Positions 9,430 to 63,934 of a stretch of DNA of 64,000 nucleotides are shown piece by piece. Source of the stretch: an uncultured bacterium. Its GTDB lineage: Bacteria > Acidobacteriota > HRBIN11 > JAKEFK01. The position numbers and the translations under genes are program-made. The DNA lies in NCBI GenBank assembly GCA_963837395.1, contig CAWINI010000003.1, forward strand, positions 430,889 through 494,888, read 5' to 3'. The notes under the pieces were generated by a model, which worked only from the letters and a program-made list of their open reading frames with translations, was not told where the DNA came from and did no database searches. Within the stretch, counting starts at the first letter, position 1. Each line of letters begins with the position of its first letter.

Positions 9430-9508
9430 TTCTTTGTACCTACCTCCCCCTTCATAAGTTGGAGATACTTAAGATCAACATTCACATTTAGCTTTGACCT
9501 TCTGATCA

Positions 9509-11026
9509 CTACGAGCTCCGTGTTTGCGTCTGTGTCTGTGTTTGAGTCTGAGTCTGTGACTGTGATTCTAACATAGGCTCAGTTTCCGCTTCAGGCTCCT
9601 CTTCGGTTTGCGTTTGAATCTGCGTCTGCGTTTGCGTTTGTGTCTGCGTTTGCGTTTGTGTCTGAGTCTGCGTTTGCGATTGCGTGGCCTCAGTTTCCGG
9701 AGGTGGAGGCGGCTGTCGTGTCAGACAGACTAAGTGTCCATCGTTCAAACCAAGAAACAAACGATCATTCGCCGTCATTGGCGCAGAACGGATACGAACG
9801 CCGGCATTGAAGTCTCCAACTCGTAAGCCTGTGTGTGGATCAAATCCTAAAACTACAGTTCCAAATGGAGCAAGAAATATGAGTGCACGATCAAAATGCA
9901 TTCGATTGTAAACGCGAGACAATGTCGGACTCAACCATGTATGCCCACCATTTTTGATTTTGAAACTGTAAAGGAAATTATCGAATGAAGATGTAATAAC
10001 GTCTTCAACACGATTCAATCTTTCATTCTTATAAAACATCGGCACACCGCGAATCGCTGCACCAGTTTTATACTTCCAATACTGTATTCCTGTTTCAGGA
10101 TCTAATCGATAAAATGTTCCATCTTCGGTTCCAAAGAAAACACCTTCCGGACCAGCAATTGGTGAACCTTGAATTTCAGCACCTGCAACAAATTTCCATT
10201 TAACAAATCCCGCTTGAGTATCAACCGCGTAGAGCGTTTTATCATTGCAACCTACGAAAACTTTTTTGTTGTACACCCATGGTGAAGTCATACAAGGCGC
10301 ATCAATTTTAAAACGCCATCCGGGATCGCCTGTCTTTGCATTAATGCTGACGATAGATCCTTTCTGGCTAACAAAATACAAATTCTTTTCATCTGCCATC
10401 GGACGTGTCATGAAACTTTCACCATCAAATTGTTTTCGCCAATAAGCTTTTCCCGTGTCTGCTGAAATCGCGAAAATTTTTCCACCAGTCGTTCCAACAA
10501 ACAAAGCACGATTAATCAAAATAAACGCTTCTTCAATTCCATCACCTACATTCGCACGCCATACAGCCTGGCCATTTTCCTGACTCACCCGATGGATTCC
10601 GCCGGTTTTACTTGCGACATAAACAGTTGATTCATCCGTTTGTGGCTGAGCAACCAAAGGTGCAGGCGTTTTGTATTTCCAGCCCAACTGTAATGGAAAA
10701 CCAATGTAAAGATACTGCGATTGTGGCTGTGTTTGAGTTTGGGTCTGGGTTTGGGTTTGGGTCTGTGTTTGCGTTTGAGTTTGTGTTTGAGTTCGCGAAG
10801 TTTGAGTAGGTTTCGTTTGAGCCAGAACTTGCGCAAGGAGCTTAGCGCCAACAGATTCATCAACCGTAGGGTTTTGAAAAAACTCAGGCTCTGAATGATC
10901 CTTGTGCTGAATCAATTGGACAATTCGCTGAGACGCACGTACGGTGAGATTCAAATAAAGGCCGGATAATACTAGCGTCAGTACGATCAGTAACTTGTTG
11001 AGCTTCATAACTCGAATTCTTGCCAT
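9509..11026 (-). CDS. Exported PQQ-repeat beta-propeller protein flanked by (TQ)n low-complexity tracts. An alternative start at 11008 overlaps the upstream stop as ATGA.
   Basis: Repeated 'G.I.A.D..TG...W..' motifs such as 'GKIFAISADTGKAYWRKQF', 'LYAVDTQAGFVKWKF' and 'FYRLDPETGIQYWKY'. Signal-like N-terminus. TQTQTQ runs at both ends. Confidence 0.75.
   Translation of the reverse strand: MARIRVMKLNKLLIVLTLVLSGLYLNLTVRASQRIVQLIQHKDHSEPEFFQNPTVDESVGAKLLAQVLAQTKPTQTSRTQTQTQTQTQTQTQTQTQTQTQPQSQYLYIGFPLQLGWKYKTPAPLVAQPQTDESTVYVASKTGGIHRVSQENGQAVWRANVGDGIEEAFILINRALFVGTTGGKIFAISADTGKAYWRKQFDGESFMTRPMADEKNLYFVSQKGSIVSINAKTGDPGWRFKIDAPCMTSPWVYNKKVFVGCNDKTLYAVDTQAGFVKWKFVAGAEIQGSPIAGPEGVFFGTEDGTFYRLDPETGIQYWKYKTGAAIRGVPMFYKNERLNRVEDVITSSFDNFLYSFKIKNGGHTWLSPTLSRVYNRMHFDRALIFLAPFGTVVLGFDPHTGLRVGDFNAGVRIRSAPMTANDRLFLGLNDGHLVCLTRQPPPPPETEATQSQTQTQTQTQTQTQTQTQTQIQTQTEEEPEAETEPMLESQSQTQTQTQTQTQTRSS
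9510..9700 (-). repeat. Hexanucleotide-period coding repeat (ACN-CAR)n encoding the C-terminal (TQ)n/(QT)n tracts.
   Basis: Plus-strand text reads gtytgngtytgn... (for example gtttgcgtctgtgtctgtgtttgagtctgag). Confidence 0.8.
10725..10800 (-). repeat. Hexanucleotide-period coding repeat encoding the N-terminal (TQ)n tract.
   Basis: gtttgggtctgggtttgggtttgggtctgtgtttgcgtttgag. Confidence 0.8.
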
Positions 11027-20480: not shown

Positions 20481-20516
20481 GACTCAGCCCCCGTTCGAAA
20501 CTGCGGCCTATCTAAT

Positions 20517-20593
20517 TTACCGCAGAGAACGCTGAGATCGCAGAATTAAATTTTTACCAGAATTTCTGCGTTCTCTGCATACTCTGGCGGTAA
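20517..20593. repeat. Imperfect palindromic REP-like element, TTACCGCAGAGAACGC...GCGTTCTCTGC...GGCGGTAA.
   Basis: Inverted arms are read directly. A second copy lies at 24437..24505 and a partial copy near 27888. Confidence 0.6.
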
Positions 20594-24390: not shown

Positions 24391-24436
24391 GGGAGCAAAG
24401 TATACCAGATGCCGGATGCCGGATTCCAGATCCTTT

Positions 24437-24505
24437 TTACCGCAGAGATCGCAGAGCACGCTGAATATTTATTATTTCTGCGAACTCTGCGTGCTCTGCG
24501 GTAAA
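24437..24505. repeat. REP-like palindrome TTACCGCAGAGATCGCAGAGCACGC...GCGTGCTCTGCGGTAA.
   Basis: Near-perfect inverted arms. Same family as 20517..20593. Confidence 0.65.
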
Positions 24506-24509
24506 AATT

Positions 24510-26276: not shown

Positions 26277-27875
26277 TTACTTCTTTTTTTCGGAGATGAC
26301 CTCGTAAACTTTGGTCATCTGTTCCAAACCTTTGAGACTGAATTCGCCTAGTTCCTTAATTTCGAAATGATCCTTAACAAGTTCATACGTATTGGCTCCA
26401 ATGACGATCTGTCCGGGCTTTGCAACCCCCGTTTCAATTCTTTGGGCAATATTCACAGTGTTTCCAAGAACAGTGTATTCAATACGTTTTGGTGAGCCGA
26501 TATCACCAGCTACAACAGGACCGCTGTTGATGCCAATTCGAACGTTGATTTTTTGTTGGCCAAACTTTTCATCATTGAACTCGTTCAGTTTCTCACGCAT
26601 TTCCAGAGCTGTCTTCACCGCGCGTACGGCGTGATCTTCCATTGCTAACGGTGCACCGAACACAGCCATGATTGCATCGCCAATAAACTTGTCCAGTGTC
26701 CCTTCATATTTAAAAATGATTTCGGTCATTTCGCCAAAATATTCATTCAGCAAAAGTGCAACCCGATGCGGCTCCATCTTTTCTGACATTCCGGTGAAAC
26801 CGACAATATCTGAAAAGATCACGGTCGTATCTACTTCCTGAGCATCGAGTGATTGATCGCTTTCGGTGGCATTTAAGATTCGATTAATTACTGACGGAGA
26901 GTGATAGCGTTCCAATTGTCCACGCCGTTTAATTTCTTCCTTAATCTTTTCGTTCAATCTTGCTTGCTCAATTCCGATTGCCGCGTAATTCGCCAGAGCT
27001 GTGAGTAAATCAAGATCCGCCGGCGTGAATGTTCCGGTGCGTGTTGTGGAATCAACAAACACAACACCGATTACATCATCTTTGTTCCATAATGGTGCAC
27101 ACATCGCGGAACGGATGTTATGAAAAATAATGCTGGCCCCTCCATCGAAACGCGGATCAAAAAGTGCATCAGAAGTCAAAATTGAGACTTTGTCTGTGAA
27201 GACTTTATTCGTAATCGTTTTGCTGATTGTGATTTTTCCCACGTCAGCTTGCGGATCGTGATACTTCACAACTTTTGGAATCAAATCGCGAGAGTGCTCA
27301 TCATAAAGCATCAAAAAACCGCGTTCCGCATTTAAGTGTTCAAAGATTAAGTTCATCACAAGATTTAAAACTTCATCAAGAGGTTGCACTGTAAGCAGTG
27401 ATTTTGCAACTTGAATCAGAATTGCCAGAATCTGATTACTTTTTTGAATATCACTAAGTACAGGTTGTTCTTCTGGTTTGCTTTCCGGAATTAGATCCGG
27501 AATAAATTTTTGAAGTTCGCTGATCGGTTTTATAAAGGTACCTGGACTTAGAAAATTATCTCCAGTATCCTGCAATTGAACTTTATCATCCGTGGTTTTT
27601 GTAAAGCGGAGCAAAAATTTACCGAGATTGATTTCATCACCATCACGCAAATCGCCACGCGTTACAAGAATGTTATTCACGCGGGTCCCGTTACGGGAAT
27701 TTAAATCGACAATGTAGGATTCTTTATCGTTGAGTGAAATGCGGCAATGATGGCGGGAAACACCGAAGTCATTAATGATGATGTCATTATCGGATGCACG
27801 TCCGATTGAGACATCACTCTTTTCAACCGGAAAGGAAGTTGTTTTATCCCCCTCCTTATAGACCAGCTTATACAT
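26277..27875 (-). CDS. FHA-GAF-class III adenylate/guanylate cyclase.
   Basis: FHA 'VSIGRASDNDIIINDFGVSRHHCRI...SRNGTRVNN'. Cyclase 'TVIFSDIVGFT' and 'KFIGDAIMAVFGAP'. Confidence 0.85.
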   Translation of the reverse strand: MYKLVYKEGDKTTSFPVEKSDVSIGRASDNDIIINDFGVSRHHCRISLNDKESYIVDLNSRNGTRVNNILVTRGDLRDGDEINLGKFLLRFTKTTDDKVQLQDTGDNFLSPGTFIKPISELQKFIPDLIPESKPEEQPVLSDIQKSNQILAILIQVAKSLLTVQPLDEVLNLVMNLIFEHLNAERGFLMLYDEHSRDLIPKVVKYHDPQADVGKITISKTITNKVFTDKVSILTSDALFDPRFDGGASIIFHNIRSAMCAPLWNKDDVIGVVFVDSTTRTGTFTPADLDLLTALANYAAIGIEQARLNEKIKEEIKRRGQLERYHSPSVINRILNATESDQSLDAQEVDTTVIFSDIVGFTGMSEKMEPHRVALLLNEYFGEMTEIIFKYEGTLDKFIGDAIMAVFGAPLAMEDHAVRAVKTALEMREKLNEFNDEKFGQQKINVRIGINSGPVVAGDIGSPKRIEYTVLGNTVNIAQRIETGVAKPGQIVIGANTYELVKDHFEIKELGEFSLKGLEQMTKVYEVISEKKK

Positions 27876-27944
27876 CTCTACGGACTCCGCGAGTTTTGCG
27901 GTAAAAATTCTTACGGCTAAGAACCGTCTTTAGCACATTAGGCT

Positions 27945-28785: not shown

Positions 28786-28845
28786 TGTAGTGGCGACCGG
28801 AAAGTCGCCTGCTATCAAACTAGGCGACCTTCCGGTCGCCACTAC
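28786..28845. repeat. Nested 24-bp-arm palindrome, TGTAGTGGCGACCGGAAAGTCGCC...GGCGACCTTCCGGTCGCCACTACA.
   Basis: One mismatch between the arms, and each arm is itself palindromic. A second copy lies at 46219..46283. Confidence 0.8.
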
Positions 28846-31044: not shown

Positions 31045-31377
31045 ATTTTGGGATGTACACAAAGTTCTCGTTTTAAACAACGTTAATTTATCGGAATATT
31101 TTTGGGTAATTGCCTTAGGCAAAGGGTTGCCATCACAATGGTGGCTCCGTGAAAGCCTCGGATTTTTGTTAGTCGGCTTTTACATTCTGGTGCTTCCAGT
31201 TTTGCTGGCAAAAACAATCTTCAAACGGTTTTACGTAAAGATGGGACCGGCAAGATTTTACATCGGTGTTTTTTTATTTTTAGCGATGTTTGCATTACCG
31301 CTAAAAATGTATTTACGCTGGCTATTTAACTTGAAGTACATAATCGCTATACCGGAGGCCTTCTTTAATATATAGAA

Positions 31378-31465
31378 AATCGTAATCTTACTCTTACTCG
31401 TACTCGTAATCGGAAAAAACGAATCGAGTAAGAGTAAGAGTAAGAGTACGATTACGAGTACGATT
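31378..31465 (+). repeat. Hexamer-repeat hairpin element, copy A. AATCGTA-(CTYNTA)n, loop, (TAAGAG/TACGAG)n-TACGATT, ending 2 nt before the ATG at 31468.
   Basis: Left arm aatcgtaatcttactcttactcgtactcgtaatcg, loop gaaaaaac, right arm gaatcgagtaagagtaagagtaagagtacgattacgagtacgatt. Confidence 0.8.
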
Positions 31466-31467
31466 TT

Positions 31468-34365
31468 ATGGCAAAGAAAGACTCAGATCACGCATACGAC
31501 ATCAATAAGTTGAACATGTTTTTTGCGATTTCCAGCATCATCATGTTCGCATTTTTTGCATGGATGTTATGGCAGGATTTCAATCGTGATTGGAAACGTG
31601 TTCAAGCTCAATTCCGGCGTTTAGAAAAAGCTCGTACTGCATCACTCATACAAAAAGAAGAAGCTACGCTCCAAAGCAATCCGGAATACACAAAAGTTCA
31701 GCAAGAATTAGAAGCAGCAAAAGCGGAACAAAAACAGCAACAAGCTGAATTCGAAAAAGCACAGAAAGATCAAAAAGACATTCAGGGAGTGTGGTACAAG
31801 GCGGATCAGGCATTTCGATTTAAGAAGGCAGAATATGAAGCCAAGCGCTACGATTATGAAGAAGCAGAGGCTGAGCATCCGAAAAGTGCCGCAAAAAAGA
31901 AGGAAGAGCTTGATAAAAGTTTTAATGCTATGCAAGATCTCCAGCACAAACTAGATGAAGTGAATGGCAAGAAATCGGCAATCGATGCGAATGTAGAAAA
32001 ATACACGAAACGGATCGATGATCTGGACAAAGAAAAGACAAAGATTCAGACGAAGTTAGATCGGATGGAACGCAAGGAGGCTAATTTTTCGGCTTCCCCT
32101 GCAAATATTTTCCGCAATCTTCCATTAGTTGATTTCATCGGACCTTCCATCAAAATTCAGCAGGTTGTTGTTGACAATATATATGAAGATATCAACTTCA
32201 CCCGAATTCAACGTGTCGATCGCTGTATGACCTGCCATGCATCAATTGATCAGGATGGATATAACGAAGGCGACAAAATTCCGGACTACGGCGAGATCAA
32301 ACAGCCATTCGTTTCACATCCGAAGTTAGATATTTTCGTTGGTACTACATCAAAGCATCCGATGGATCGATTCGGATGCACTTCATGTCATCTTGGAAGA
32401 GGACGTTCTACAGATTTTGTTGGTGCTGTTCATGTTCCGGACAATGAGGAAGAAAAGAAGCGTTGGGAAAAAGATCATGATTGGCACAAGATGCATCATT
32501 GGGAATATCCGATGTATCCAAAGAGCATGGTGGAAGCTTCGTGCATTAAATGCCATCAAGGTGTTGCTCAAATTCCTGGCGGCGAAAAAATCAACGTGGC
32601 TCGATATCTGTTCATTGAAAACGGTTGTCATGGCTGCCATCTGACAAAAGGATTTGAAAATCTTCCGAAAGTTGGCCCGGATTTGCATCATATTAGCAGC
32701 AAGGTAACGAAAGAATGGGCTTTCAAATGGATCAAAAATCCAAAAGCTTTTCGTCCGACTACACGTATGCCCCGTTATTTCGGAAACTCTAACAACAGCG
32801 ATCCTGAAGATGTTGCACGTAATGAAGTTGAAATCCGATCGATGGTTGAGTATCTATTCGCAAAAGCTGAACCGATCGATTATGAACCTGTAACACTTTC
32901 CGGCGATCCAGCAAACGGCAAAACGCTCGTTCACGACCTGGGATGCGTAGGATGCCATCTGGCAGAAGGAGATACGCCATCTGGCATAAATACCCGCCGC
33001 CGTTTCGGGCCGCCATTGGTGAAGCTGGGATCGAAGACAAATGCTACCTGGCTGTTTAACTGGTTAAAAGAACCCCGCAATTATGCACCACAGACCCGGA
33101 TGCCCAACATGAAGCTAAGCGATCAAGAAGCAATGGACATCGCTGCTTATTTGCTATCAATTCGAGATACGGCATGGGAAGGGCAAAAAGTTCCGACTCT
33201 TCAAGAAAAATATTTGAAAGATGAAATCGTATTCCATTTAAAACGGCAGTACGGTATTGCAGCAGAAGAACAATACAACAAAATGTCTGAGCAAGAACGC
33301 TGGATGTTCTTAGGTGAAAAATCGATCTCACGTTACGGCTGTTCCGGTTGTCATTTGATACCCGGATTTGAAACAGCAAAAGGGATCGGTACATCGCTTT
33401 CGGAAGAAGGAAGCAAGAAAGTTACAAAGTTTGATTTTGGATTTGTTGATATTGAACATGAAGTACCGGATTACATCACACAAAAATTGCATGATCCGCG
33501 TTCATTTGATCATGAACGTGTGAAACGGTGGGATGAAAAGTTGATCATGCCCAATTTTGATTTCAGTAATGAAGAAACTGCATCACTGACAATGTTGATC
33601 ATGGGATTGACCAATGAGCGCGTTCCGGCAGAGTCGCAGGCAGTGCTGAATGATAGTCAGCAAGTTGCAGAACGTGGGCGTTGGTTAGTATTGCAGAAAA
33701 ATTGTGTCGCATGTCACAACATTGATGGATGGGGCGGTGAAATTCGTGAAGTCATCAAAGAAGAAGGAATGGCCCCGCCGTTGCTGATTGAAGAAGGTGA
33801 TAAAGCGCAATCAGATTGGTTGTTCCAATTTTTGAAAGCGCCGGGGCATATTCGTCCGTGGTTAAAAGTACGAATGCCGAATTTCCGGTTATCGGATGAA
33901 GAAGCGAATACGCTGGTGCAATTCTTTATGGCGGCAACAAAGAGTGGTCCGTTTAATAGTCCACCTGATATTACAAATCATCTTGCAGAAGGCGAGCACA
34001 TCTTCAAAACATTCCAGTGTTCAGTGTGTCACGTTATTCAAGGAGTTGTTCCTCCAAACAGAGCTGCGGCAGATCTTGCACCGGATCTCAGCATGGCGCG
34101 AACCAGATTGCGTGCGAGCTGGATTTTGAAATGGTTGGAAGATCCGCAAAAATTACAGCCCGGCACTCGTATGCCTGACTTCTTCCCTGAGGCAGCGATG
34201 CCAGGTGTTTTGAATGGCGATCCGAATTTGCAAAAGGAAGCGATCCGCAACTATATTTACAGCCTCGGCCAGGGAAATCTTGCATCGATTTTGAGTCCGG
34301 CAGAAGCTGCGTGGTATGAACCTAAAAAAGCGCACGCGACTGCAGAGAATGTTGGAACAAAATAG
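31468..34365 (+). CDS. Membrane-anchored multihaem c-type cytochrome with eight CxxCH motifs.
   Basis: CMTCH, CTSCH, CIKCH, CHGCH, CVGCH, CSGCH, CVACH, CSVCH. N-terminal TM and K/E-rich coiled coil. Four repeats of 'W.F.W.K.P...TRMP'. Confidence 0.85.
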   Translation: MAKKDSDHAYDINKLNMFFAISSIIMFAFFAWMLWQDFNRDWKRVQAQFRRLEKARTASLIQKEEATLQSNPEYTKVQQELEAAKAEQKQQQAEFEKAQKDQKDIQGVWYKADQAFRFKKAEYEAKRYDYEEAEAEHPKSAAKKKEELDKSFNAMQDLQHKLDEVNGKKSAIDANVEKYTKRIDDLDKEKTKIQTKLDRMERKEANFSASPANIFRNLPLVDFIGPSIKIQQVVVDNIYEDINFTRIQRVDRCMTCHASIDQDGYNEGDKIPDYGEIKQPFVSHPKLDIFVGTTSKHPMDRFGCTSCHLGRGRSTDFVGAVHVPDNEEEKKRWEKDHDWHKMHHWEYPMYPKSMVEASCIKCHQGVAQIPGGEKINVARYLFIENGCHGCHLTKGFENLPKVGPDLHHISSKVTKEWAFKWIKNPKAFRPTTRMPRYFGNSNNSDPEDVARNEVEIRSMVEYLFAKAEPIDYEPVTLSGDPANGKTLVHDLGCVGCHLAEGDTPSGINTRRRFGPPLVKLGSKTNATWLFNWLKEPRNYAPQTRMPNMKLSDQEAMDIAAYLLSIRDTAWEGQKVPTLQEKYLKDEIVFHLKRQYGIAAEEQYNKMSEQERWMFLGEKSISRYGCSGCHLIPGFETAKGIGTSLSEEGSKKVTKFDFGFVDIEHEVPDYITQKLHDPRSFDHERVKRWDEKLIMPNFDFSNEETASLTMLIMGLTNERVPAESQAVLNDSQQVAERGRWLVLQKNCVACHNIDGWGGEIREVIKEEGMAPPLLIEEGDKAQSDWLFQFLKAPGHIRPWLKVRMPNFRLSDEEANTLVQFFMAATKSGPFNSPPDITNHLAEGEHIFKTFQCSVCHVIQGVVPPNRAAADLAPDLSMARTRLRASWILKWLEDPQKLQPGTRMPDFFPEAAMPGVLNGDPNLQKEAIRNYIYSLGQGNLASILSPAEAAWYEPKKAHATAENVGTK

Positions 34366-34404
34366 GTCTTAGCGTCTCCGCGGTAAAGATCGGACCTCCC
34401 CTGC

Positions 34405-34524
34405 ATGCTAAGCTCAAACATACTAATCTTGATTGTATGCATCGTTCTGATCATCGGTGCATGGTTTTTGTTTCAATGGGGAATTCATAGAGCGGAAAAA
34501 AATGATAAGGAACATCAAGAATGA
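34405..34524 (+). CDS. Small hydrophobic protein of 39 aa. It is not in the ORF track and overlaps the next start as ATGA.
   Basis: 'MLSSNILILIVCIVLIIGAWFLFQWGIHRAEKNDKEHQE' has one TM. Its stop shares the ATGA at 34521-34524. Confidence 0.45.
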   Translation: MLSSNILILIVCIVLIIGAWFLFQWGIHRAEKNDKEHQE

Positions 34525-35417: not shown

Positions 35418-35924
35418 ATGGATGCTGAACAGTGGCGCAGAGAGACTTTGCGAAAAATGAAAAGCTCACGCGCTGCTACGCTCCGTTTATTTGATCGCAT
35501 CAACGCGCGCATGATGATCAAACCTGAACTTCAAGGAAGGTGGTCCATTAAAGATGTGTTTGCGCACATGGTAGCCTGGGAAAATGAAGCTTCGAAACGG
35601 TTGGAGCTGATTTTAAATGGAAAGTCAGATCGAATTTATTACTACGAAGACTCCAGTGTGATGCACAGATTCAATGCGCGTGTTGTATCAAAATATAAAC
35701 GACTTTCAATGAATCAATTGTTAAAAGAGGCTGCGGAAATTCGCACGGGGCTCATGGCTCGATTGAAAAAAATTCCAGTGGTTGAAATCGATAATTCATC
35801 CCACCTTCATCCCGTTTCAGAATGGTTGCCGGAATTCACATATATCCACGAGCAAGATCATCGCAAACGGATTCAGAAATGGATTTCCGCTCGTAACAGG
35901 GACAGGCAAAAAGGCCGTTCTTGA
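35418..35924 (+). CDS. DinB/ClbS-like four-helix-bundle protein.
   Basis: 'WSIKDVFAHMVAWENE' and 'HEQDHRKRI'. Confidence 0.5.
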   Translation: MDAEQWRRETLRKMKSSRAATLRLFDRINARMMIKPELQGRWSIKDVFAHMVAWENEASKRLELILNGKSDRIYYYEDSSVMHRFNARVVSKYKRLSMNQLLKEAAEIRTGLMARLKKIPVVEIDNSSHLHPVSEWLPEFTYIHEQDHRKRIQKWISARNRDRQKGRS

Positions 35925-36232
35925 TGACTCCATTCGACCCATCATCAAGGTCATTCCGCTTTATCATCCTTCCAATCTGCGTTGCGTACTTTCTGATTTG
36001 TGTACTGTTCGGCGGTTGGCCTTTCAATCTGATTTTTCTGGATTCGCTCTTCAATAGCCGTATCGCACTCATTTTGGTGACGATTTGCATTCTGCACTCT
36101 CGAAACATTTTCCAAAAAATCACACGCCAAACTGTTCTGGAAACGTTAGGTTTTTTTGTAATCATCGGAATCGCAGCTTACCTGCGGTTTAAAGGAATTC
36201 GTAATCTTGAGCTTTTAGCGACCTACGGTTGA
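35921..36232 (+). CDS. Small membrane protein (hypothetical).
   Basis: 103 aa, about 3 TM. Confidence 0.4.
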   Translation: MMTPFDPSSRSFRFIILPICVAYFLICVLFGGWPFNLIFLDSLFNSRIALILVTICILHSRNIFQKITRQTVLETLGFFVIIGIAAYLRFKGIRNLELLATYG

Positions 36233-36245
36233 TGAACCAATTCTG

Positions 36246-37646
36246 GTGGATCCTGTACTTCGGATGTTGCGAACCGGATCCTATGATTTCATGAATTATG
36301 AATACGGTGGTGTGTATTTTTATGTACTCGCCATCGCTTTCATCCTGATGATTTTTCGCAGCATCTCCCACTTCTGGCATCGCGATATAAGTGAGATTCC
36401 GGAAGTCGCATATTACACTGCCGGACGAATGATAACTGCATTTTTGAGTCTTGCTATAGTTGCATGCACCTACGGAATCGCACGGAAATATTTCGGAAAG
36501 ATTCCGGCAATTGCCGCAAGTTTTATTCTGACGTTTTCTGCCCTTTCGTTTACTGTTGCACATGAGGTACGACTGGATTTCGCTCTTGCTTTATGGATTC
36601 TGCTGGCACACTGGTTCTTTTTGCGAATGCTGGATGAGCCTTCAACGTTGAATTACGCAGTTGCAGGAATCTTTTGTGGACTCGCCATGGGCACGAAATA
36701 CACAGTTGTCACGATCTTCATCCCATTTCTGATTACGCATGCGCTTTCAAAAAAAGGAAAATGGTTTGATTGGAATTTGCTGCTCGGTCTTTTTTGCGGC
36801 TTAGCAATTTACATACTGACCAACCTCTATGCTTTAATCCATCTCAACACCTTTCTGATCCGATTGTCTATTGCTGTCTATCACAATCTCAATCCACTGC
36901 ACTGGAGTCATACTTCCAATCGCGCTTTTGAATACACCATTATTTTGATCAGGGAGGGAATCGGACTGGCAGCTCTAATCACAGCATTGATCACTCTCCC
37001 CCGCATTTTTTCGAGGCCCGGCTTTGCGGAGGTTGCGCGGACGCCTCGAGGCCCGGCATTGCGGTGGCAGGGTGCGAAAGCCGGGCCTCAGATCGTTTAT
37101 TACTTCTTTCGGACCTTCCCTCTTCTGCATTTACTATTTCTCGGTTCCTATCCATCCGGCTTTGCACGTTACATAATTCCAATCCTGCCTTTATTAGCCA
37201 TTCTTGCCGGCGAAGGAGTACGAATTATTGTGGAATGGATCAAGATCAAAGCAAAAATGGAGCCGCGCACAAATAAGTTCGTGGCAACCGCAGTACTTGC
37301 TTTATTAGTTGTATACCCTGCGTGGAGCGCTTATCGATATTATGCTGAACTCGCAAAAGCACTCTCACCGAAAGAAGTTATTACATGGATTCAAAAGAAT
37401 ATTCCGGAAGGTTCAACAATTCTGATTGATCCTACAGGACCCGTCGTTCCTTCGAATCACTATAAGGTCACTTCGCTGAACTATGCTCAATTCAAGGAAA
37501 CAAGAAGCGTTAAAGGTTTTGACTACGTTTGTGTAACAGAAGATTTGTTTAAGCGCGTCCCTCGCTCCTATGAAGTACTGCACGAATTCCCATCGCGCAC
37601 GAAAGCACTGGATCGTGCGGTGCGAATCTACAAGGCTGTCGAGTGA
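36246..37646 (+). CDS. Polytopic membrane protein, GT39/ArnT-like, carrying a GC-rich in-frame insertion near 37012-37091.
   Basis: At least 10 TM segments. The family assignment is weak. Insert 'SRPGFAEVARTPRGPALRWQGAKAGPQ' is encoded by a palindromic GC-rich element. Confidence 0.45.
   Translation: MDPVLRMLRTGSYDFMNYEYGGVYFYVLAIAFILMIFRSISHFWHRDISEIPEVAYYTAGRMITAFLSLAIVACTYGIARKYFGKIPAIAASFILTFSALSFTVAHEVRLDFALALWILLAHWFFLRMLDEPSTLNYAVAGIFCGLAMGTKYTVVTIFIPFLITHALSKKGKWFDWNLLLGLFCGLAIYILTNLYALIHLNTFLIRLSIAVYHNLNPLHWSHTSNRAFEYTIILIREGIGLAALITALITLPRIFSRPGFAEVARTPRGPALRWQGAKAGPQIVYYFFRTFPLLHLLFLGSYPSGFARYIIPILPLLAILAGEGVRIIVEWIKIKAKMEPRTNKFVATAVLALLVVYPAWSAYRYYAELAKALSPKEVITWIQKNIPEGSTILIDPTGPVVPSNHYKVTSLNYAQFKETRSVKGFDYVCVTEDLFKRVPRSYEVLHEFPSRTKALDRAVRIYKAVE
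37012..37091. repeat. GC-rich palindromic element inside a CDS (cgaggcccggc, cgaggcccggc, gccgggcctc).
   Basis: The local GC is far above the surrounding CDS. There is a direct repeat plus an inverted copy, with a similar motif after folB at 56692..56735. Confidence 0.7.
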
Positions 37647-37648
37647 TT

Positions 37649-37673
37649 TGTAGCGCCGGCGGCTCGCCGGCGC
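37649..37673. repeat. 25-bp palindromic repeat TGTAGCGCCGGCGGCTCGCCGGCGC. It is the inverted partner of 37805..37829.
   Basis: Exact reverse complement of the 37805..37829 copy, with 131 bp between them. Confidence 0.85.
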
Positions 37674-37804
37674 GGGTTTGCTTTGCATCTAATTTGTCCT
37701 CTGTGGGTGAAAACGAGCAAATATACTAAAGAATTTCTTCACAATTTAGGCTGTTCATGCTCGCTCCCGCTCGCATAAAACTTTTCAGTGTATTTACTAA
37801 GCCA

Positions 37805-37829
37805 GCGCCGGCGAGCCGCCGGCGCTACA
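37805..37829. repeat. 25-bp repeat GCGCCGGCGAGCCGCCGGCGCTACA.
   Basis: Perfect inverted partner of 37649..37673. A third, similar copy lies at 61853..61876. Confidence 0.85.
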
Positions 37830-37858
37830 AAGCTTCACCACTCTCAAAATTGGGTATA

Positions 37859-38566
37859 ATGTATGGTTTTATGAGGACAACACGGCGGGAGCCGAAGACA
37901 AAGCGAGCAGCGGCAGCATTTTACGACCTTGATGGTACGCTGGTAAAAACGAACCTGGTACATGTCCTGTTTTTTCAAGCCCGTAATCAGCAAGGAATTT
38001 TGCGTAGCATCACCAAAACTGCCACAGTGATGTCAGCGGTTCCGGCTTTTCTGCTGACAGATGCTTACAGCCGTACCGCATTCCAGGAATTATTTTTCAA
38101 GATGTACAAAGGTGAATCGGAGGATCGTATCCGATTTTTGTCTGAAGAATTATTTGAAGATGTAATTCAACCTTCGATTTTTCCGGGTGCATACGATCTC
38201 ATTGAAAAATCACGCAGTCTCGGACTTCGCCAGGTCCTTGTTACTGGCGCGCTTGATACCACAGTTGCACCGCTTGCACGTCATTTGAAAATTGATGATT
38301 GGATCACGAACCGATTGGAATTTGTTGACGGATTTGCTACAGGCCGATTGTTGCCGCCAGTAATGGCGAATGCATCGAAAGCATCCTGGATCCGTTCGTA
38401 TGCCGAAAAAGAAGGATTGAGTTTGAGCGCAAGTTATTGTTATACAGATAGCATCAGTGATCTTCCGATGCTATCGGTGGTTGGACATCCCACAGCGGTT
38501 CATCCTGATTTTCGTTTGAAAAGCACTGCAATCTCCAGCCATTGGCCAATTTTAGATTTGAGGTAA
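37859..38566 (+). CDS. HAD-IB family hydrolase (phosphoserine-phosphatase-like).
   Basis: 'AAAFYDLDGTLVKTN', 'LVTGALD' and 'YTDSISDLPML'. The start was moved past the N-terminal extension that translates the repeat. TATAAT overlaps the ATG at 37859 and the next ATG is at 37871. Confidence 0.7.
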   Translation: MYGFMRTTRREPKTKRAAAAFYDLDGTLVKTNLVHVLFFQARNQQGILRSITKTATVMSAVPAFLLTDAYSRTAFQELFFKMYKGESEDRIRFLSEELFEDVIQPSIFPGAYDLIEKSRSLGLRQVLVTGALDTTVAPLARHLKIDDWITNRLEFVDGFATGRLLPPVMANASKASWIRSYAEKEGLSLSASYCYTDSISDLPMLSVVGHPTAVHPDFRLKSTAISSHWPILDLR

Positions 38567-42935: not shown

Positions 42936-42981
42936 AGGATCTTTGCAACTTTAATAATGCGAATTCGTCTGTTTAAATAAT

Positions 42982-43060
42982 AATCGTACTCAAACTCGTA
43001 CTCTTAATCTTACTCGGAGGATTACGAGTACGAGTACGATTACGAGTACGAGTACGAGTA
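42982..43060 (+). repeat. Hexamer-repeat hairpin element, copy B, ending 7 nt before the ATG at 43068.
   Basis: aatcgtactcaaactcgtactcttaatcttactcg, loop gagg, attacgagtacgagtacgattacgagtacgagtacgagta. Confidence 0.8.
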
Positions 43061-43067
43061 AAAAGAG

Positions 43068-43892
43068 ATGCTAACCACCAGGATCGACATTCTGCCGGAA
43101 CTACAAAATCTTGAAATCGCTGAAACGACTTACAATGATCACGAGTTTCCACGTCATTTGCATGAAACTTATGTAATCGAAGTTGTAATTCAGGGGACCG
43201 TTGAGTTTGAATGTGGAGGCAAACAACATCTTGCTCCAGCCGGCAGCCTCATCCTTTTTCACCCCGGAGATGTCCACACCGGCAGGTCATTATGTAACCA
43301 CACGGTTACATATTCCAGTTTTTGTCCTACGGCTGATTGGATGCAATGGTTTTTAAAAACCACGGATTCTCCCGATCGGACAATAATCTTTCCATCACCT
43401 ACGATGAATGATCCCAAAGTTGCCCGGCTTTTAAAAGCTGCACATGATGCTTTGCAAAATCAAGCCGAAATGTTGCATTCCGAATCCCTGATGATTCTGG
43501 CATTTTCGTATTTGCTACAAAATGAGGCCCCGAAACTGTCGAAACAAAATGAACCACGGGCTATTCAAAAAGCAAAAGAGTACATGACTGCAAAATTTTC
43601 TGATCAAATTCATTTAACCGATCTCGCACAAACTTCGGGTCTCAGTCCATATTATTTTTTGCGATCATTTCAAAAAGCGACCGGGTTAACGCCGCATGAA
43701 TATTTGTGCAACTTGCGAGTCGAAAGAGCGCGAAAGTTATTAGCAAGCGGGGCTTCAATCTCAGATGCGGCTGTGCAGACTGGATTTTTCGATCAAAGCC
43801 ATCTGCATCGCCATTTCCGCCGCCTGCTGGGAATCACCCCTGGCCAGTACAGAGCAATTTTGTACAAGAAGCGCTCAATCCTTCCAGTTTAA
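43068..43892 (+). CDS. AraC-family transcriptional regulator with a cupin-like N-terminal domain.
   Basis: C-terminal 'LSPYYFLRSFQKATGLTPHEYL...QTGFFDQSHLHRHFRRLLGITPGQY'. Confidence 0.85.
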   Translation: MLTTRIDILPELQNLEIAETTYNDHEFPRHLHETYVIEVVIQGTVEFECGGKQHLAPAGSLILFHPGDVHTGRSLCNHTVTYSSFCPTADWMQWFLKTTDSPDRTIIFPSPTMNDPKVARLLKAAHDALQNQAEMLHSESLMILAFSYLLQNEAPKLSKQNEPRAIQKAKEYMTAKFSDQIHLTDLAQTSGLSPYYFLRSFQKATGLTPHEYLCNLRVERARKLLASGASISDAAVQTGFFDQSHLHRHFRRLLGITPGQYRAILYKKRSILPV

Positions 43893-46218: not shown

Positions 46219-46283
46219 TGTAGTGGCGAGCGGAAGCTCGCCTATTCAATTTTGTCGAGGGCGACCTTCCGGTCGCCCCTACT
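46219..46283. repeat. Second copy of the nested palindrome TAGTGGCGAGCGGAAGCTCGCC...GGCGACCTTCCGGTCGCCCCTACTA.
   Basis: Same family as 28786..28845. Confidence 0.75.
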
Positions 46284-56685: not shown

Positions 56686-56691
56686 ATTGTT

Positions 56692-56735
56692 CTGAGGCCG
56701 GCAGTCGCGCCCTGCCTCCGCAGCCGGCCTCGAAG
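56692..56735. repeat. GC-rich hairpin ctgaggccggc...gccggcctcgaag followed by GGTTATAAT and the ATG at 56747.
   Basis: Inverted repeat read directly. Confidence 0.6.
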
Positions 56736-56746
56736 GTTATAATACT

Positions 56747-58774
56747 ATGCATATAGTACTACCAGCGCGCTTAAAAGAAGGCCAAAAATTAAAGGATCTG
56801 GCCGATGATCAGCCGAATGCAATTTCGGCTTCGAAAAACATAATCCGCGGCAAAGCGCTCATTTTTTGGGACCAAAAACATCCCGGCAAGAAACTAGATG
56901 CGATCGATACCGATCAAATCACTCCTTCAAAATTTTGTGTTTCCGAGAGTTTAGAATCGCTGGATGAGAAATGGAAAGAAGGAGCCTTCCGCTATTTGAT
57001 GCGGGATTTTCGAGAGCGTGTGCATCGCGGCGAGACATTTGTCATCGCCGGTGATCGTTTTGGAATTGGTTCTTCGCGCGAAATGAGTCCTGCCGGTCTT
57101 AAAGCAATTGCAGAAGAAGTTGGCTTACAGATGGTGATTGTTTGCGGAAACAACATGGGTGATATTTTTCGCCGGAATGCATTTAATCTCGGCCTTCAAG
57201 TGGTTCAATCACCTGAAGCTGTTCAAGATGCGCAGGATGGTGATGAGTTTACGTTCGATGTTCTATCGCGCAAATTAACCAATGTAACTCAAGAAAAGGG
57301 ATACGAGCCCCAACCCTTAACACCGAAAGAGGATGAGATTCGAAGAACCGGTGGAATTTTCGCATTAGGCCGCAGAGAATTTCGCGAGTCAGTTGCACGT
57401 AAACCGGAAATTGTTTGGCCCGATCCGGAAACTGCAAAAAAGATGACAACCACAGAACAAATCGTTTGGGCTCATCGTGTGGATAAAGATGCTGTGGTAA
57501 AACCCGGCGCTACTTTGCGGGTGTTTGCAGATTTGCTACCAGCATCTGATGGCACTGCCCCGTTTTCGATTCACACTTTTAATCAAATCACTGGCGGCAA
57601 TACGATCTATCCAAGACAAGCCGCGGTCGCAAATGATCATTTTGTGTTTACCGGAAAAGCAGAAGACGAAGCGCAGACTTCCATCTCACGTGAATTCGCG
57701 AAGATACATAAAATTGAAAAACCATATTATGCAGATCCCGGTGATGGTATCTTTCATTTTTATTTTCCAGAACAAGGACTGGTATATCCCGGACAATTTA
57801 TTCCGGGTGCCGATTCACACAGCCGAGCTTATGGTGCATATGGCGCAGTCGGATTCGGTGTTGGATCAACAACTCTTGGATTTGGATGGTCGACAGGTTA
57901 CGTTTACTTTACTCTTGCGCGCGCACGCCGGGTAATTTTTGCCGGCAAACTTCAGCCATGGGTAAGCGGTAAAGATATCGTTTTGAAATTATTGGAACGA
58001 TGGGGAACCGCACAATCACAAGGGATGTCGGTTGAATTCGTGGATCAAAACAAACAATTGCCTGTTGCGTACCGAAATACAATCGCAAACATGATGGCTG
58101 AAGGTGAAGCACAAAACGGAATTTTTGCGCCAGATGAATTGACGTATGAATGGTATCGCCAAAAAGGGATTACAGAACTTCCCTATCCATCACTGCAACC
58201 CGGTTCTGAAGCATTTTATGAAATCGCTGAAACATTAAATTTAAGTGATGTTGTTCCGATGATTGCGAAACCATTCAGCCCCGGAAATGCATATCCTGCG
58301 GAAGAGGTGGCGAAAGAACATATTCCTTTTGATAAGGCTTACATCGGTTCATGTACGAATGGAAGTTATGATGATTTACTGCAGGCAGCATTGGTGATCC
58401 GTGCGGCACGAAAAGCAGGAATACACAAGACAGCGCGCGATCTGGTGATTTTTCCAGGATCAGGTGGTGTGAAGAAAGCGATCGAAATTTCGGATCCACG
58501 TTTAGGAAATGAATCGATCGCCGATGTGTTTCGATCCGTGGGTGGAGAGATTCGAAATTCGTGGTGTGGTCCGTGTTTTGGGCAAGGTCCGGATGCATTG
58601 AAAATCGGACAACGTGCAATCACATCCTTTAATCGCAACTGGCAAAATCGTATGGGGGTTGGTGGCGAAGGTTATCTTGCAAGTCCGGCTGTGGTTGCAT
58701 CTTCAGCAATGGTTGGATATATGGCTCCTCCAACCGAACTGAATATTAAATGGACCGCGGAACAAAATATATAA
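56747..58774 (+). CDS. Aconitase-superfamily Fe-S hydro-lyase with permuted domain order: a LeuD-like swivel domain N-terminal to a LeuC-like catalytic core.
   Basis: 'FVIAGDRFGIGSSRE' (swivel). 'SCTNGSYDDL' and 'WCGPCFGQG' (cluster ligands). Confidence 0.7.
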   Translation: MHIVLPARLKEGQKLKDLADDQPNAISASKNIIRGKALIFWDQKHPGKKLDAIDTDQITPSKFCVSESLESLDEKWKEGAFRYLMRDFRERVHRGETFVIAGDRFGIGSSREMSPAGLKAIAEEVGLQMVIVCGNNMGDIFRRNAFNLGLQVVQSPEAVQDAQDGDEFTFDVLSRKLTNVTQEKGYEPQPLTPKEDEIRRTGGIFALGRREFRESVARKPEIVWPDPETAKKMTTTEQIVWAHRVDKDAVVKPGATLRVFADLLPASDGTAPFSIHTFNQITGGNTIYPRQAAVANDHFVFTGKAEDEAQTSISREFAKIHKIEKPYYADPGDGIFHFYFPEQGLVYPGQFIPGADSHSRAYGAYGAVGFGVGSTTLGFGWSTGYVYFTLARARRVIFAGKLQPWVSGKDIVLKLLERWGTAQSQGMSVEFVDQNKQLPVAYRNTIANMMAEGEAQNGIFAPDELTYEWYRQKGITELPYPSLQPGSEAFYEIAETLNLSDVVPMIAKPFSPGNAYPAEEVAKEHIPFDKAYIGSCTNGSYDDLLQAALVIRAARKAGIHKTARDLVIFPGSGGVKKAIEISDPRLGNESIADVFRSVGGEIRNSWCGPCFGQGPDALKIGQRAITSFNRNWQNRMGVGGEGYLASPAVVASSAMVGYMAPPTELNIKWTAEQNI

Positions 58775-58857
58775 ATGGGAGGGCGGGCTCTGTGCCCGCC
58801 GTCGGATTGGCGGGCAGGGACGCCCGCCCTCCAGACGCGTTTTATTTTGGAGGCTTT

Positions 58858-61876: not shown

Positions 61877-62978
61877 AACTGCTGCTCAAGAATTCGTGCA
61901 GCAACACGTGAAAATGGTGAACGCCATTTTCACGCTTCACTGAAAAGCGTCCACGAACATAGGTTTTTGATTTCAAACCACGCTGCACAGCTTCACAAAT
62001 TTCGATATCTTCTTTTTGAATCTGATCGCTGAACGCTATCGATTCATTCAACGACTCCCATCCTGAAGCCGATCCTGGATCATTGAAGTACCATTCGAAA
62101 ATTGTTAGTGTTTGTTGATGATCGAGCGGTAGTATGTGATTGAATTGCAAATTATCCGGATATATGTTGATCATCCAGTTTGGAAACAGCCAATAATACA
62201 GAGCTTTTGATTCTTCACTTGATCTCACATACCGCCGATCGCGCCCGTGCAAATCTCCGGGCTTCAAGTCTCGAATTGGAGCATGGGCAGAACTGTAATA
62301 GCGGAATGTGTCTACCCGATATTTTTCATAATCCACTTCACGAAACAATTCCGGATGGGCGATTGGAATATGATATCCCTCCAAATAATTATCAATGTAA
62401 ACTTTCCAATTGCAGTTCACAATGTAATCACGCCGTTCAACCAGCCGCATTTTATTTAAATCGACACCCATTTCTTGAACTTCATCGTTGATCTTTCCCA
62501 TGTAGTCTCGAAGCGGCATTGGATGCGATTTCAAATTTACATAAACAAACGGTCCCCAGGATTCTACTGTTGCAGATGGAAGACAAATTTCATCTTTGTT
62601 CCAGTTTTTTACACCTTCAAAATCAGGTTGTGTTAAAAGGCGGCCATCAAGACTGTAAGTCCAGCCATGATATCGGCACTGCAAACTCTTTCGATTTCCT
62701 TTTCCAACAGCAACAGGCCCGGCACGATGGCGGCAAACATTTGACATCGCATGCAGCTTTTCATCGGTCCCATTTGTTACAACCAATGGTTCCCCCGCAA
62801 TTTCGCAAGCATGAAAATCACCCGGACGTTGCAGCAATTCGGTTCTGCTTACTGGCTGCCATGTTTGGGAAAAGATTTTTTGTTTTTCAAATTCTAAGAA
62901 AGCAGGATCGGTGTACCAGCGTGCGGGAATAGTTGAGGCGAGGGATAAGTCCGGTTCGGGATCGTAATCTTTGAACAT
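61872..62978 (-). CDS. Rieske [2Fe-2S] non-haem-iron oxygenase alpha subunit (GbcA / choline-monooxygenase-like).
   Basis: 'CRHRAGPV...LQCRYHGWTY' and catalytic-domain His/Asp motifs. Confidence 0.8.
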   Translation of the reverse strand: MFKDYDPEPDLSLASTIPARWYTDPAFLEFEKQKIFSQTWQPVSRTELLQRPGDFHACEIAGEPLVVTNGTDEKLHAMSNVCRHRAGPVAVGKGNRKSLQCRYHGWTYSLDGRLLTQPDFEGVKNWNKDEICLPSATVESWGPFVYVNLKSHPMPLRDYMGKINDEVQEMGVDLNKMRLVERRDYIVNCNWKVYIDNYLEGYHIPIAHPELFREVDYEKYRVDTFRYYSSAHAPIRDLKPGDLHGRDRRYVRSSEESKALYYWLFPNWMINIYPDNLQFNHILPLDHQQTLTIFEWYFNDPGSASGWESLNESIAFSDQIQKEDIEICEAVQRGLKSKTYVRGRFSVKRENGVHHFHVLLHEFLSSSL

Positions 62979-63062
62979 AATCGTACTCTTACTCTTACTC
63001 TTACTCTTACTCGTACTCTCAATCTAGCTTTCGATTACGATTAAGAGTAAGAGTACGAGTAT
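62979..63062 (-). repeat. Hexamer-repeat hairpin element, copy C. It fills the intergenic gap and, in minus sense, ends ...GAGTACGATT-ATG.
   Basis: aatcgtactcttactcttactcttactcttactcgtactctcaatc, loop tagctttc, gattacgattaagagtaagagtacgagtatg. Confidence 0.8.
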
Positions 63063-63064
63063 GA

Positions 63065-63934
63065 TTATTCCAGTTGCTTTAAGAATTCGGAGGCAACTTG
63101 TTTAACATCGCGGTGATCAACATCGATTTCCGCATTCAGCCGCCTCATTTCATCGGCTGAGATTTTACCACCCAGCTGATTCAACACATCACGCAATTCC
63201 GGATACTGCGCAAGCGTTGCACTTCGAATTACCGGTGCTGCTTCATAAGGCGGAAAATAATGCTGGTCATCTTCCAACACAAACAAATCAAGTTTTGCTA
63301 TAACACCATTTGTCACATCGCCCGCAGCAAAATCTATTTGTTTATTGGCAAGTGCCTTATAACTTAATGTCAAATCCATCACACGCGGCGGTTCCTTGAA
63401 TTTAAGCCCATACAATGCTGCCATTCCAGGATAACCATCTTTGCGTTCCATAAATTCATAACCAAATCCAGCGATCCACTGTGGCGCATATCGTGCCGCT
63501 TCAGAAATCGTTTTGATACCCAGCTTTCGTGCATCTTCACCACGTATCAAAATCGCAAAAGTATTGTTAAAGCCAAGCGGCTTCAACCATTCCAAATTGA
63601 ACTGCTTCACATAACTATCATGGACAATTTTGAATACAGTTGATGCATCATTTTGTGGTTCCATTTTCAGGATCGCAGTCAAAGCAGTGCCGGTGTATTC
63701 AACGTAGGTATCCATCCCACCGGCTGTTAAAGCTTGATGGCAAATAAAGCTTCCACCTAAATTTAGCTTTCTTTGAACTTTTAACGTGGTCTTGTTTTCA
63801 ATTTGCTGCGCGATGATTTCACCCAGCAGTACCTGCTCACTAAAATTTTTTGAGCCAACAACAATTTCATTATTTTTGCTGTTACATCCCGCAAAAGCAG
63901 TGATAATCAGAATCAGGATGAATATTTTTTTCAT
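63065..63934 (-). CDS. ABC-transporter substrate-binding lipoprotein, glycine betaine/choline type (OpuAC-like).
   Basis: Lipobox 'ITAFAGC'. The OpuAC-fold assignment rests on overall resemblance. Confidence 0.75.
   Translation of the reverse strand: MKKIFILILIITAFAGCNSKNNEIVVGSKNFSEQVLLGEIIAQQIENKTTLKVQRKLNLGGSFICHQALTAGGMDTYVEYTGTALTAILKMEPQNDASTVFKIVHDSYVKQFNLEWLKPLGFNNTFAILIRGEDARKLGIKTISEAARYAPQWIAGFGYEFMERKDGYPGMAALYGLKFKEPPRVMDLTLSYKALANKQIDFAAGDVTNGVIAKLDLFVLEDDQHYFPPYEAAPVIRSATLAQYPELRDVLNQLGGKISADEMRRLNAEIDVDHRDVKQVASEFLKQLE

Follow-up and report, generated by a model that had tools for sequence, protein, structure and literature searches.

A dispersed palindromic repeat within the coding sequence of a GT-C glycosyltransferase gene

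Background

How does a GC-rich palindrome of intergenic type come to lie inside the reading frame of a conserved membrane enzyme? The question is raised by a 64,000-nucleotide (nt) stretch of DNA from an uncultured bacterium (contig CAWINI010000003.1, positions 430,889 to 494,888), hereafter the window, in which a block of about 80 nt at 37012-37091 interrupts the gene of a GT-C (PMT_2/GT39-type) glycosyltransferase. A preliminary description of the sequence had taken this block for a recent insertion, tolerated as a loop extension of the protein. Comparing the locus with those of related genomes, we find that the block belongs to a dispersed family of palindromic repeats and that its insertion is old and vertically inherited. 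[quoted passage not shown]

The features on which the argument turns are the following.

35921-37646, plus strand: host gene, GT-C (PMT_2/GT39-type) membrane glycosyltransferase, in open reading frames (ORFs) 35921-36232 and 36246-37646
37012-37046, plus strand: unit 1 of the repeat, a truncated copy (nhmmer E = 2.5e-5, and alignments)
37047-37092, plus strand: unit 2, a complete hairpin (covariance model R1, 72.7 bits, E = 2e-14, at 37044-37094)
37048-37060, plus strand: 5' arm of unit 2, GAGGCCCGGCATT
37061-37076, plus strand: loop of unit 2, GCGGTGGCAGGGTGCG
37077-37089, plus strand: 3' arm of unit 2, AAAGCCGGGCCTC

A truncated and a complete repeat unit

The block consists of one truncated and one complete tandem unit of a hairpin repeat of about 45 nt. 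The motif CGAGGCCCGGC stands at 37012-37022 and again at 37047-37057, and the inverted GCCGGGCCTC stands at 37080-37089. Allowing at most one mismatch, GAGGCCCGGC is matched six times in the window against 1.75 expected, a count that none of 100 shuffles reached. The GC fraction is 0.66 over 37000-37099 and about 0.40-0.46 in the flanks; the 84 nt from 37009 to 37092, which form the longest of the GC-rich islands detected, rise to 78% GC in intervals of 40 nt, and the window overall has 43.7%. Coordinates, GC profile and shuffle test thus agree on the existence of the block and its motifs as first described.

In unit 1 the 5' arm survives together with the first part of the loop, GAGGCCCGGCTTTGCGGAGGT agreeing with the family consensus, before a degenerate tail sets in. 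The two units are spaced 35 nt apart and therefore lie in different reading frames. Folded as RNA, unit 2 reaches -29.4 kcal/mol (z = -3.96 relative to dinucleotide shuffles); the 116-nt region folded as a whole is no more stable than its shuffles (z = -0.66), the signal being confined to the single unit.

A loop modelled as disordered in a membrane glycosyltransferase

On sequence and predicted structure the host protein is classed as a PMT_2/GT39-like GT-C glycosyltransferase. It matches the Pfam family PMT_2 (E = 5.5e-14, 53.1 bits against a cut-off of 26.1), and D103 and E104, which form the Dx/DE motif of the first outer loop, are invariant. A search of the PDB by sequence returned no match; a Foldseek search with the model of its orthologue P0002 returned ALG12 (E = 1e-8, probability 1.0), ArnT (5ezm, E = 4e-8) and STT3. 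Orthologues are 538-571 amino acids long, and the gene neighbourhood (HEAT, DinB, GT39, HAD, LarA) is conserved in relatives.

In the orthologue alignment the insert falls between ...LPRIF and SDRLLLLWTFP.... The AlphaFold2 model of P0002 has a mean predicted local distance difference test (pLDDT) score of 82.7, and its sole segment below 50, residues 365-381, is the insert, which lies between the helices 348-362 and 378-404. The description of the insert as a loop extension between two helices is thus borne out, at least in the model. If the helices are numbered backwards from the soluble domain at the C-terminus, the loop would lie on the cytoplasmic side, a placement that follows because the soluble domain is assumed to be periplasmic, as it is in other GT-C enzymes; the arginine-rich composition of the loop is consistent with it. 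For the protein the insert is presumably neutral.

The spacer between this gene and the following HAD gene carries repeats of its own. An inverted pair of GTAGCGCCGGCGGCTCGCCGGCGC, with a GTAG head and a palindrome, stands at 37650-37673 (plus strand) and 37805-37828 (minus strand). Its right arm lies within the upstream extension of ORF 37757-38566, in which the match to HAD orthologues starts at 37871. At the corresponding place three relatives (L001, L003, L020) have instead a gene of 170-186 amino acids, and two (L011, L012) have neither.

A family dispersed through intergenic spacers

The repeat that entered the gene has relatives elsewhere. The family consensus, of about 45 nt, reads GAGGCCCGGCTTT + GCGGWGGNAGGGYGCG + AAAGCCGGGCCTC and forms a 13-bp stem around a conserved loop of 16 nt. 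Run over the window with filters off, the covariance model R1 finds two loci only, the one in the gene and the following one.

56689-56735, minus strand: second family member (R1, 53.3 bits, E = 6e-10), filling the 61 nt that separate folB from an aconitase-family gene

The gene upstream of this copy is FolB (Pfam E = 7e-28). That a hairpin after folB, placed at 56692, is related to the block had been proposed before, and we confirm it: both arms match those of unit 2, and an 18-nt loop core, TGCGGWGGCAGGGYGCGA, is shared at 18 of 18 positions on the opposite strand, a match of which 0.08 would be expected by chance. The arms of the folB copy (56694-56732), GAGGCCGGC and GCCGGCCTC, are each one base shorter than the consensus GAGGCCCGGC and GCCGGGCCTC. 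The shortening may be a real symmetric variant, or two bases may have been dropped at GGNCC-type sites of the assembly, which are discussed below.

Across 165 kb, comprising the window and the loci of relatives, R1 recognizes 12 members, and further ones are present in L018, L019 and L021. When JGI metagenome contigs were scanned for a pattern of loop plus stem, five matches came up. Three of these are true members (L013, L015, L017), all intergenic and on contigs of 43-50% GC, and the other two are chance matches on GC-rich contigs. The L015 member is flanked by PMT_2 and DinB genes, that of L017 by GT2 and PadR genes. Inverted doublets occur in L013 (765-815 plus, 828-885 minus), L010 (8342-8393 plus, 8405-8456 minus) and L019 (8363-8413 plus, 8426-8477 minus). 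A scan of a collection of genome contigs with GAGGCCN{0,1}GGCN{0,2}TGCGGWGGCAGGG gave five matches, every one in a GC-rich actinomycete and regarded as fortuitous; the window's species is apparently missing from that collection. The loop pattern had no match among viral contigs.

In sum, seven distinct loci share the 13-bp stem and 16-nt loop, of which six are intergenic and one lies in a coding sequence. The intragenic block is therefore a member of a dispersed palindromic repeat family, and its earlier characterization as an intergenic-type repeat within a coding sequence was apt. The intergenic copies occupy spacers of related metagenome contigs and are not fragments of the gene with GT39 sequence at their flanks.

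The sites of the family are filled in some genomes and empty in others. The spacer between folB and the aconitase-family gene, filled in the window, measures 8 nt and is empty in L021, with flanks that align cleanly; conversely, the site upstream of remA is filled in L021 (9209-9259, R1 56.1 bits) and cleanly empty in the window. The spacer between the cytochrome c and HEAT genes holds a doublet in L010 and L019 only, other relatives having unrelated palindromes or none. No clear target-site duplication is seen at these filled and empty pairs, a terminal TA or GTT being inseparable from the palindrome, and for that reason mobility as the mechanism of spread is what we infer from the filled and empty sites.

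The insertion is old and vertically inherited

The orthologous loci available to us come from independent ENA, Logan, JGI and NCBI assemblies. In the protein alignment, variable inserts occupy the same position in P0002-P0009 and P0014-P0016, shorter forms are found in P0010, P0012 and P0017, and the insert is absent from P0019-P0024, which stand at 42-55% identity. Alignments of the DNA identify the same element in L001, L002, L010, L011, L012, L018 and L019, and in these orthologues it is in frame. Remnants persist elsewhere: L003 keeps both ends of the element and L020 a degenerate 3' half. Unit number varies, with one unit in L010 and L012 and one and a half to two in the window, L001, L002 and L011.

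Since insert-bearing orthologues reach down to about 59% amino-acid identity (P0015, P0016), the insertion cannot be called recent, as the preliminary description had it; nor is the segment of about 27 amino acids specific to one lineage, the alignment showing it to be common to many orthologues and absent from the distant ones. It is an old insertion, inherited vertically and followed by slippage, decay and loss according to lineage.

Probable reading-frame errors around the repeat

As deposited, the gene is broken. The protein on record (P0001) is a product of 466 amino acids that lacks the first ~100 codons, which lie in another frame in ORF 35921-36232; tblastn places residues 1-99 of an orthologue in frame 2 of the window and residues 100-567 in frame 3. 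The conserved SDRLLLLW motif, in turn, lies in a frame different from both of its flanks. Two positions account for a break and a return of frame.

36219, plus strand: extra C that breaks the frame; the window has TTAGCGACC, orthologues TTAG-GACC, a GGACC site in the orthologue
37110, plus strand: extra C at which the frame returns; the window has CTTTCGGACC, six aligned orthologous loci CTTTGGACC or TTATGGACC, again a GGACC site in the orthologue

Comparing 16 syntenic genes with those of L003, a short-read relative that served as reference, we observed exactly four internal indels whose length is not a multiple of three: at 31033 in the gene of a cytochrome b C-terminal protein, at 36219 and 37110 in the glycosyltransferase gene, and at 39706 in a LarA-type gene. 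All four fall on GGNCC sites of the orthologue, of which there are about 30, covering some 1.5% of the aligned positions, and by our own estimate such a coincidence is very unlikely to arise by chance. The broken genes retain 79-98% protein identity on both sides of the breaks. From these observations we conclude that the frames were broken by systematic base-calling errors of a long-read assembly and not by true mutations; the C added at 36219 is probably a sequencing error and that at 37110, near the repeat, probably a sequencing artefact. The errors possibly occur at a methylated motif, as what is generally known of nanopore errors would suggest. A GGNCC error common to the whole lineage was considered and rejected: in L001, a close relative's 3.0-Mb ENA contig that probably comes from another long-read assembly and whose errors look generic, 1-nt indels split genes as well (1325, 6677), but not at GGNCC, so the pattern is specific to the assembly of the window.

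Unit 2 itself appears to be correct, its length and arms being equal to those of the copies in JGI contigs. A base is probably missing from the tail of unit 1, near GGACG at 37039-37043. The in-frame translation of the block given in the preliminary description therefore stands in one respect and not in another: ORF 36246-37646 does read ...SRPGFAEVARTPRGPALRWQGAKAGPQ... across it, but between about 37047 and 37110 that frame departs from the ancestral one. Once both indels are corrected, the true peptide probably resembles ...SRPGFAEVA..ASRPGIAVAGCESRASDRLLLLWTFP, a parallel to GPGVAEGGCERRASDRLLILWTFP of L010.

Maintenance of the stem and rival explanations

The arms of the hairpin remain complementary while their sequences change. 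Over all 12 members, in an alignment fitted to the model, 94.7% of the cells are paired and 6 of the 13 pairs carry changes in both partners. Covariation scores 0.382 here; shuffled alignments give 0.162 (none of 500 reaches the observed value), and partners slid out of register at most 0.075. The eight in-gene copies, aligned with MAFFT and no structure, have 87.5% of cells paired, with five pairs (11 cells) changed on both sides and a score of 0.316, against 0.159 shuffled (0 of 500) and at most 0.124 slid. Identity in the element and in the gene is discordant: the window and L010 share 88% of the element (37 of 42 positions) and 65.5% of the gene, and the window shares with L001, L011 and L012 only 55-76% of the element and 88-90% of the gene, although the low value for L011 comes in part from which of its two units is aligned with unit 2 of the window.

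Several of these points, and some others, speak against a repeat that was merely inserted and tolerated. The stem is kept by compensatory changes even in vertically inherited copies within the gene, and a purely neutral passenger would not obviously predict the discordance of identities in either of its two forms; the patterns might stem from selection for the hairpin, from conversion by other copies of the repeat, or from template switching that corrects the arms. It may also be that the gene's two indels are genuine mutations that compensate each other. Neither a transposase nor a target-site duplication nor a parent element was found, and the census of the family covers the 64-kb window and the loci of relatives, with two loci in the window. 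It is conceivable, though we think it doubtful, that the hairpin has persisted in the coding sequence through deep divergence because its nucleic-acid structure is maintained; the gene's loop would then have served over long times as a docking place for a hairpin element, whether selfish or functional. Maintenance might come from selection, on an RNA or DNA hairpin bound by a protein of the host or of the element or on a signal for mRNA stability or pausing, or else from the dispersed family, whose copies would convert the one in the gene or insert anew at its site. Covariation beyond shuffles in both sets, the close agreement between the window and L010 copies, which are both near the intergenic consensus, and the conservation of the loop across unrelated loci all fit such maintenance. 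Yet the element has been lost or eroded in L003, L019 and L020 in a gene otherwise intact, close relatives diverge fast in it, and the intergenic copies lie in both orientations relative to transcription. G-T and A-C mismatches on the sense strand are equal in number (3 and 3), so that neither strand is indicated as the transcript and an RNA signature is lacking. The eight in-gene sequences are, moreover, mutually related, with both-side changes clustered at the loop-proximal pairs, and correction of the quasi-palindrome by template switching may keep the arms complementary without selection.

The other explanations are less probable still. Were the gene a true pseudogene, or its double frameshift real and compensated, ...ARTPRGPALRWQGAKAGPQIVYYFFR... 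would be the peptide made, if any. The indels are indeed present in the deposited assembly, where P0001 is recorded on a contig of 1.18 Mb, and two of them near the repeat restore the frame within ~70 nt, as selection for a compensating mutation would. We nonetheless regard this as unlikely: breaks of the same type hit the cytochrome b C-terminal and LarA-type genes, which are 88-98% identical on either side, the invariable GGNCC context points to systematic error, and the out-of-frame stretch destroys a nearly invariant L..LW motif. That the segment arose in place as a low-complexity loop, the intergenic look-alikes being coincidental or gene-derived, would agree with an insert that is repetitive and variable in length among orthologues; it is very improbable given the stem and loop shared by seven distinct loci, the precise filled and empty sites of intergenic copies, the distant orthologues that have no insert, and intergenic copies that carry no flanking GT39 sequence. 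The sharp jump in GC content inside an AT-leaning gene might also suggest that the assembly was mis-joined here, or that the segment is an intein or splices itself out in some other way. We now consider these alternatives, of which mis-join and intein had been raised at the outset, negligible. The flanks are collinear with nine orthologous loci from independent projects, which disposes of the mis-join. An insert of about 27 amino acids, disordered in the model and with no Pfam domain besides PMT/PMT_2 in the protein, leaves no room for a Hint-type splicing domain, which exceeds ~130 amino acids.

Relation to known repeat classes

Three classes of small bacterial repeats offer comparison. The Rickettsia palindromic elements (RPEs) are dispersed palindromes found in intergenic regions and in frame in unrelated genes, which they do not destroy (PMC10969869). 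The element studied here is like them in having intergenic copies and an insertion that adds a peptide segment to a gene left intact, in frame in L002, L010, L011, L012, L018 and L019. RPEs, however, measure ~150 bp, comprise ten families and encode, within a single genome, a conserved peptide in numerous genes, whereas the present unit, at ~45 nt, falls short of the ~100-150 bp of the Rickettsia family and was seen at one site in a coding sequence. The comparison with RPEs is one of description, and they belong to Rickettsia, in contrast to the present lineage, which is free-living and probably acidobacterial. Proteins that cluster at 90% identity with the LarA-type and aconitase-family proteins of the window carry the NCBI label Acidobacteriota bacterium, and others simply "bacterium", which gives a hint of the taxon rather than an assignment.

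REP sequences and REPINs are short, GC-rich, multi-copy palindromes, mostly intergenic and often arranged as inverted doublets, which turn over between genomes (PMC3686654, PMC3337134). The present family is like them in its size class and its GC-rich palindrome and, as far as the seven loci go, apparently also in a bias to intergenic sites and in its doublets (L013, L010, L019), and it forms the hairpin expected of the class, with a 13-bp stem and the high degree of pairing reported above. What defines REPs is a conserved GT(A/G)G tetranucleotide immediately 5' of the palindrome (PMC3686654). This head is absent from the copies of the window's lineage, which start with TTCG or CTCG, and GTAG occurs in copy 1 of L013 only. 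The bases before AGGCC are CTCG in unit 2 of the window, TTCG in the folB copy, in L002 and L011 and in the intergenic copies of L010 and L019, and TTCA, TCTG, ATAG or TTAG in the remainder. The present loop is also long (16 nt) and conserved, and REPs are almost exclusively extragenic, unlike the copy in our gene. A crude HUH...Y motif scan for the Y1 transposase RAYT over all ORFs of the window found no match, which is weak evidence. The suggestion of an event like that of the bacterial interspersed mosaic elements (BIMEs) is a fair analogy as regards clusters and doublets of palindromic units, but an analogy only, and no statement of membership in the REP family.

Intragenic copies of ERIC (enterobacterial repetitive intergenic consensus) and of QMITE1 of Coxiella represent the third class: small, non-autonomous stem-loop repeats, mostly intergenic, with occasional in-frame copies (PMC10969869). 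The present element is of this kind in all these respects. MITEs, on the other hand, are typically AT-rich and longer than ~100 bp, and an insertion sequence is the origin of their terminal inverted repeats and target-site duplications. These traits are not demonstrable here: neither a clear duplication at the filled and empty site pairs nor a parent insertion sequence was seen.

Two further classes were tried and rejected. Intrinsic (Rho-independent) terminators are called neither at 37047-37092 nor at 56689-56735, there being no T-run after the hairpin on either strand. A CRISPR-like array does not apply, the units being adjacent with no spacers between them. Rfam gave no match at the gathering threshold in the window, and three weak sub-threshold matches in L013, L015 and L017, none of them at the element.

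Proposed history of the insertion

Our preferred reading, that a tolerated and ancient insertion underlies the block, can be put as a sequence of events. A small, non-autonomous palindromic repeat would have become scattered through the intergenic spacers of the lineage, and a single copy may long ago have entered the stretch of the GT-C gene coding for a loop that joins two transmembrane helices. It would have been tolerated there as a loop extension rich in arginine, proline, glycine and alanine, because the unit is GC-rich and has no stop codon in that frame and the loop is disordered, and would then have been passed on vertically. Later, its fate would have differed by lineage: partial duplication in the window, L001, L002 and L011, erosion in L019 and L020, and deletion leaving a remnant in L003. 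Two compensating 1-nt indels, most likely base-calling errors at GGNCC, would finally have put unit 2 out of its ancestral register in the window.

Other repeats in the window

Several other repeats of the window are recorded here as observations in their own right. Two inverted doublets of GTAGTGGCGACCGGAARGTCGCC, at 28787-28845 and 46220-46282, are of textbook REP form, with a GTAG head and a palindrome in a REPIN-like arrangement, and belong to a different family. AT-rich palindromes of 6-nt units (TACTCT / GAGTAA, TACTCG / CGAGTA) make up long, intergenic inverted repeats at 31364-31475, 42979-43069 and 62965-63070. Arrays with a period of 6 or 12 nt (TGCGTT / TGTGTC / TGGGTT and others) stand at 9501-9697 and 10704-10822, ~1.1 kb apart, and may encode repetitive peptides. 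Another repeat family, TTTACCGCAGAG...CTCTGCGGTAAA, is found at 20516-20549, 24434-24507 and 27874-27911, with inverted repeats ~3.9 kb apart and locally. Just past the aconitase-family gene, at 58773-58843, lies a nested palindrome of 71 nt and 80% GC (GGAGGGCGGGC...GCCCGCC...GGCGGGC...GCCCGCCCTCC), which R1 matches weakly at 9.5 bits.

Before the HEAT-repeat gene, at ~34400-34515, the last ~110 nt are strongly conserved in all relatives (L001, L002, L003, L010, L012), pointing to a possible small coding sequence. Immediately ahead of this stretch the spacer is a hot spot, where the family of palindromic repeats differs from genome to genome.

Conclusions

We stress that the reads should be checked before gene calls of this window, such as the 466-amino-acid product, the 382-amino-acid LarA fragment or the split gene of the cytochrome b C-terminal protein, are taken for pseudogenes. 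The locus adds a case of a dispersed palindrome in frame in a conserved enzyme gene, outside the obligate intracellular bacteria in which such cases are best known, and its series of orthologues records the duplication, erosion and deletion of the insert. For this lineage it follows that GC-rich protein "loops" can be derived from repeats. The maintenance of the stem inside a coding sequence is the one feature that merits follow-up, as it offers a tractable system in which to ask whether selection or a repair mechanism preserves the complementarity of a hairpin while the repeat is also translated.

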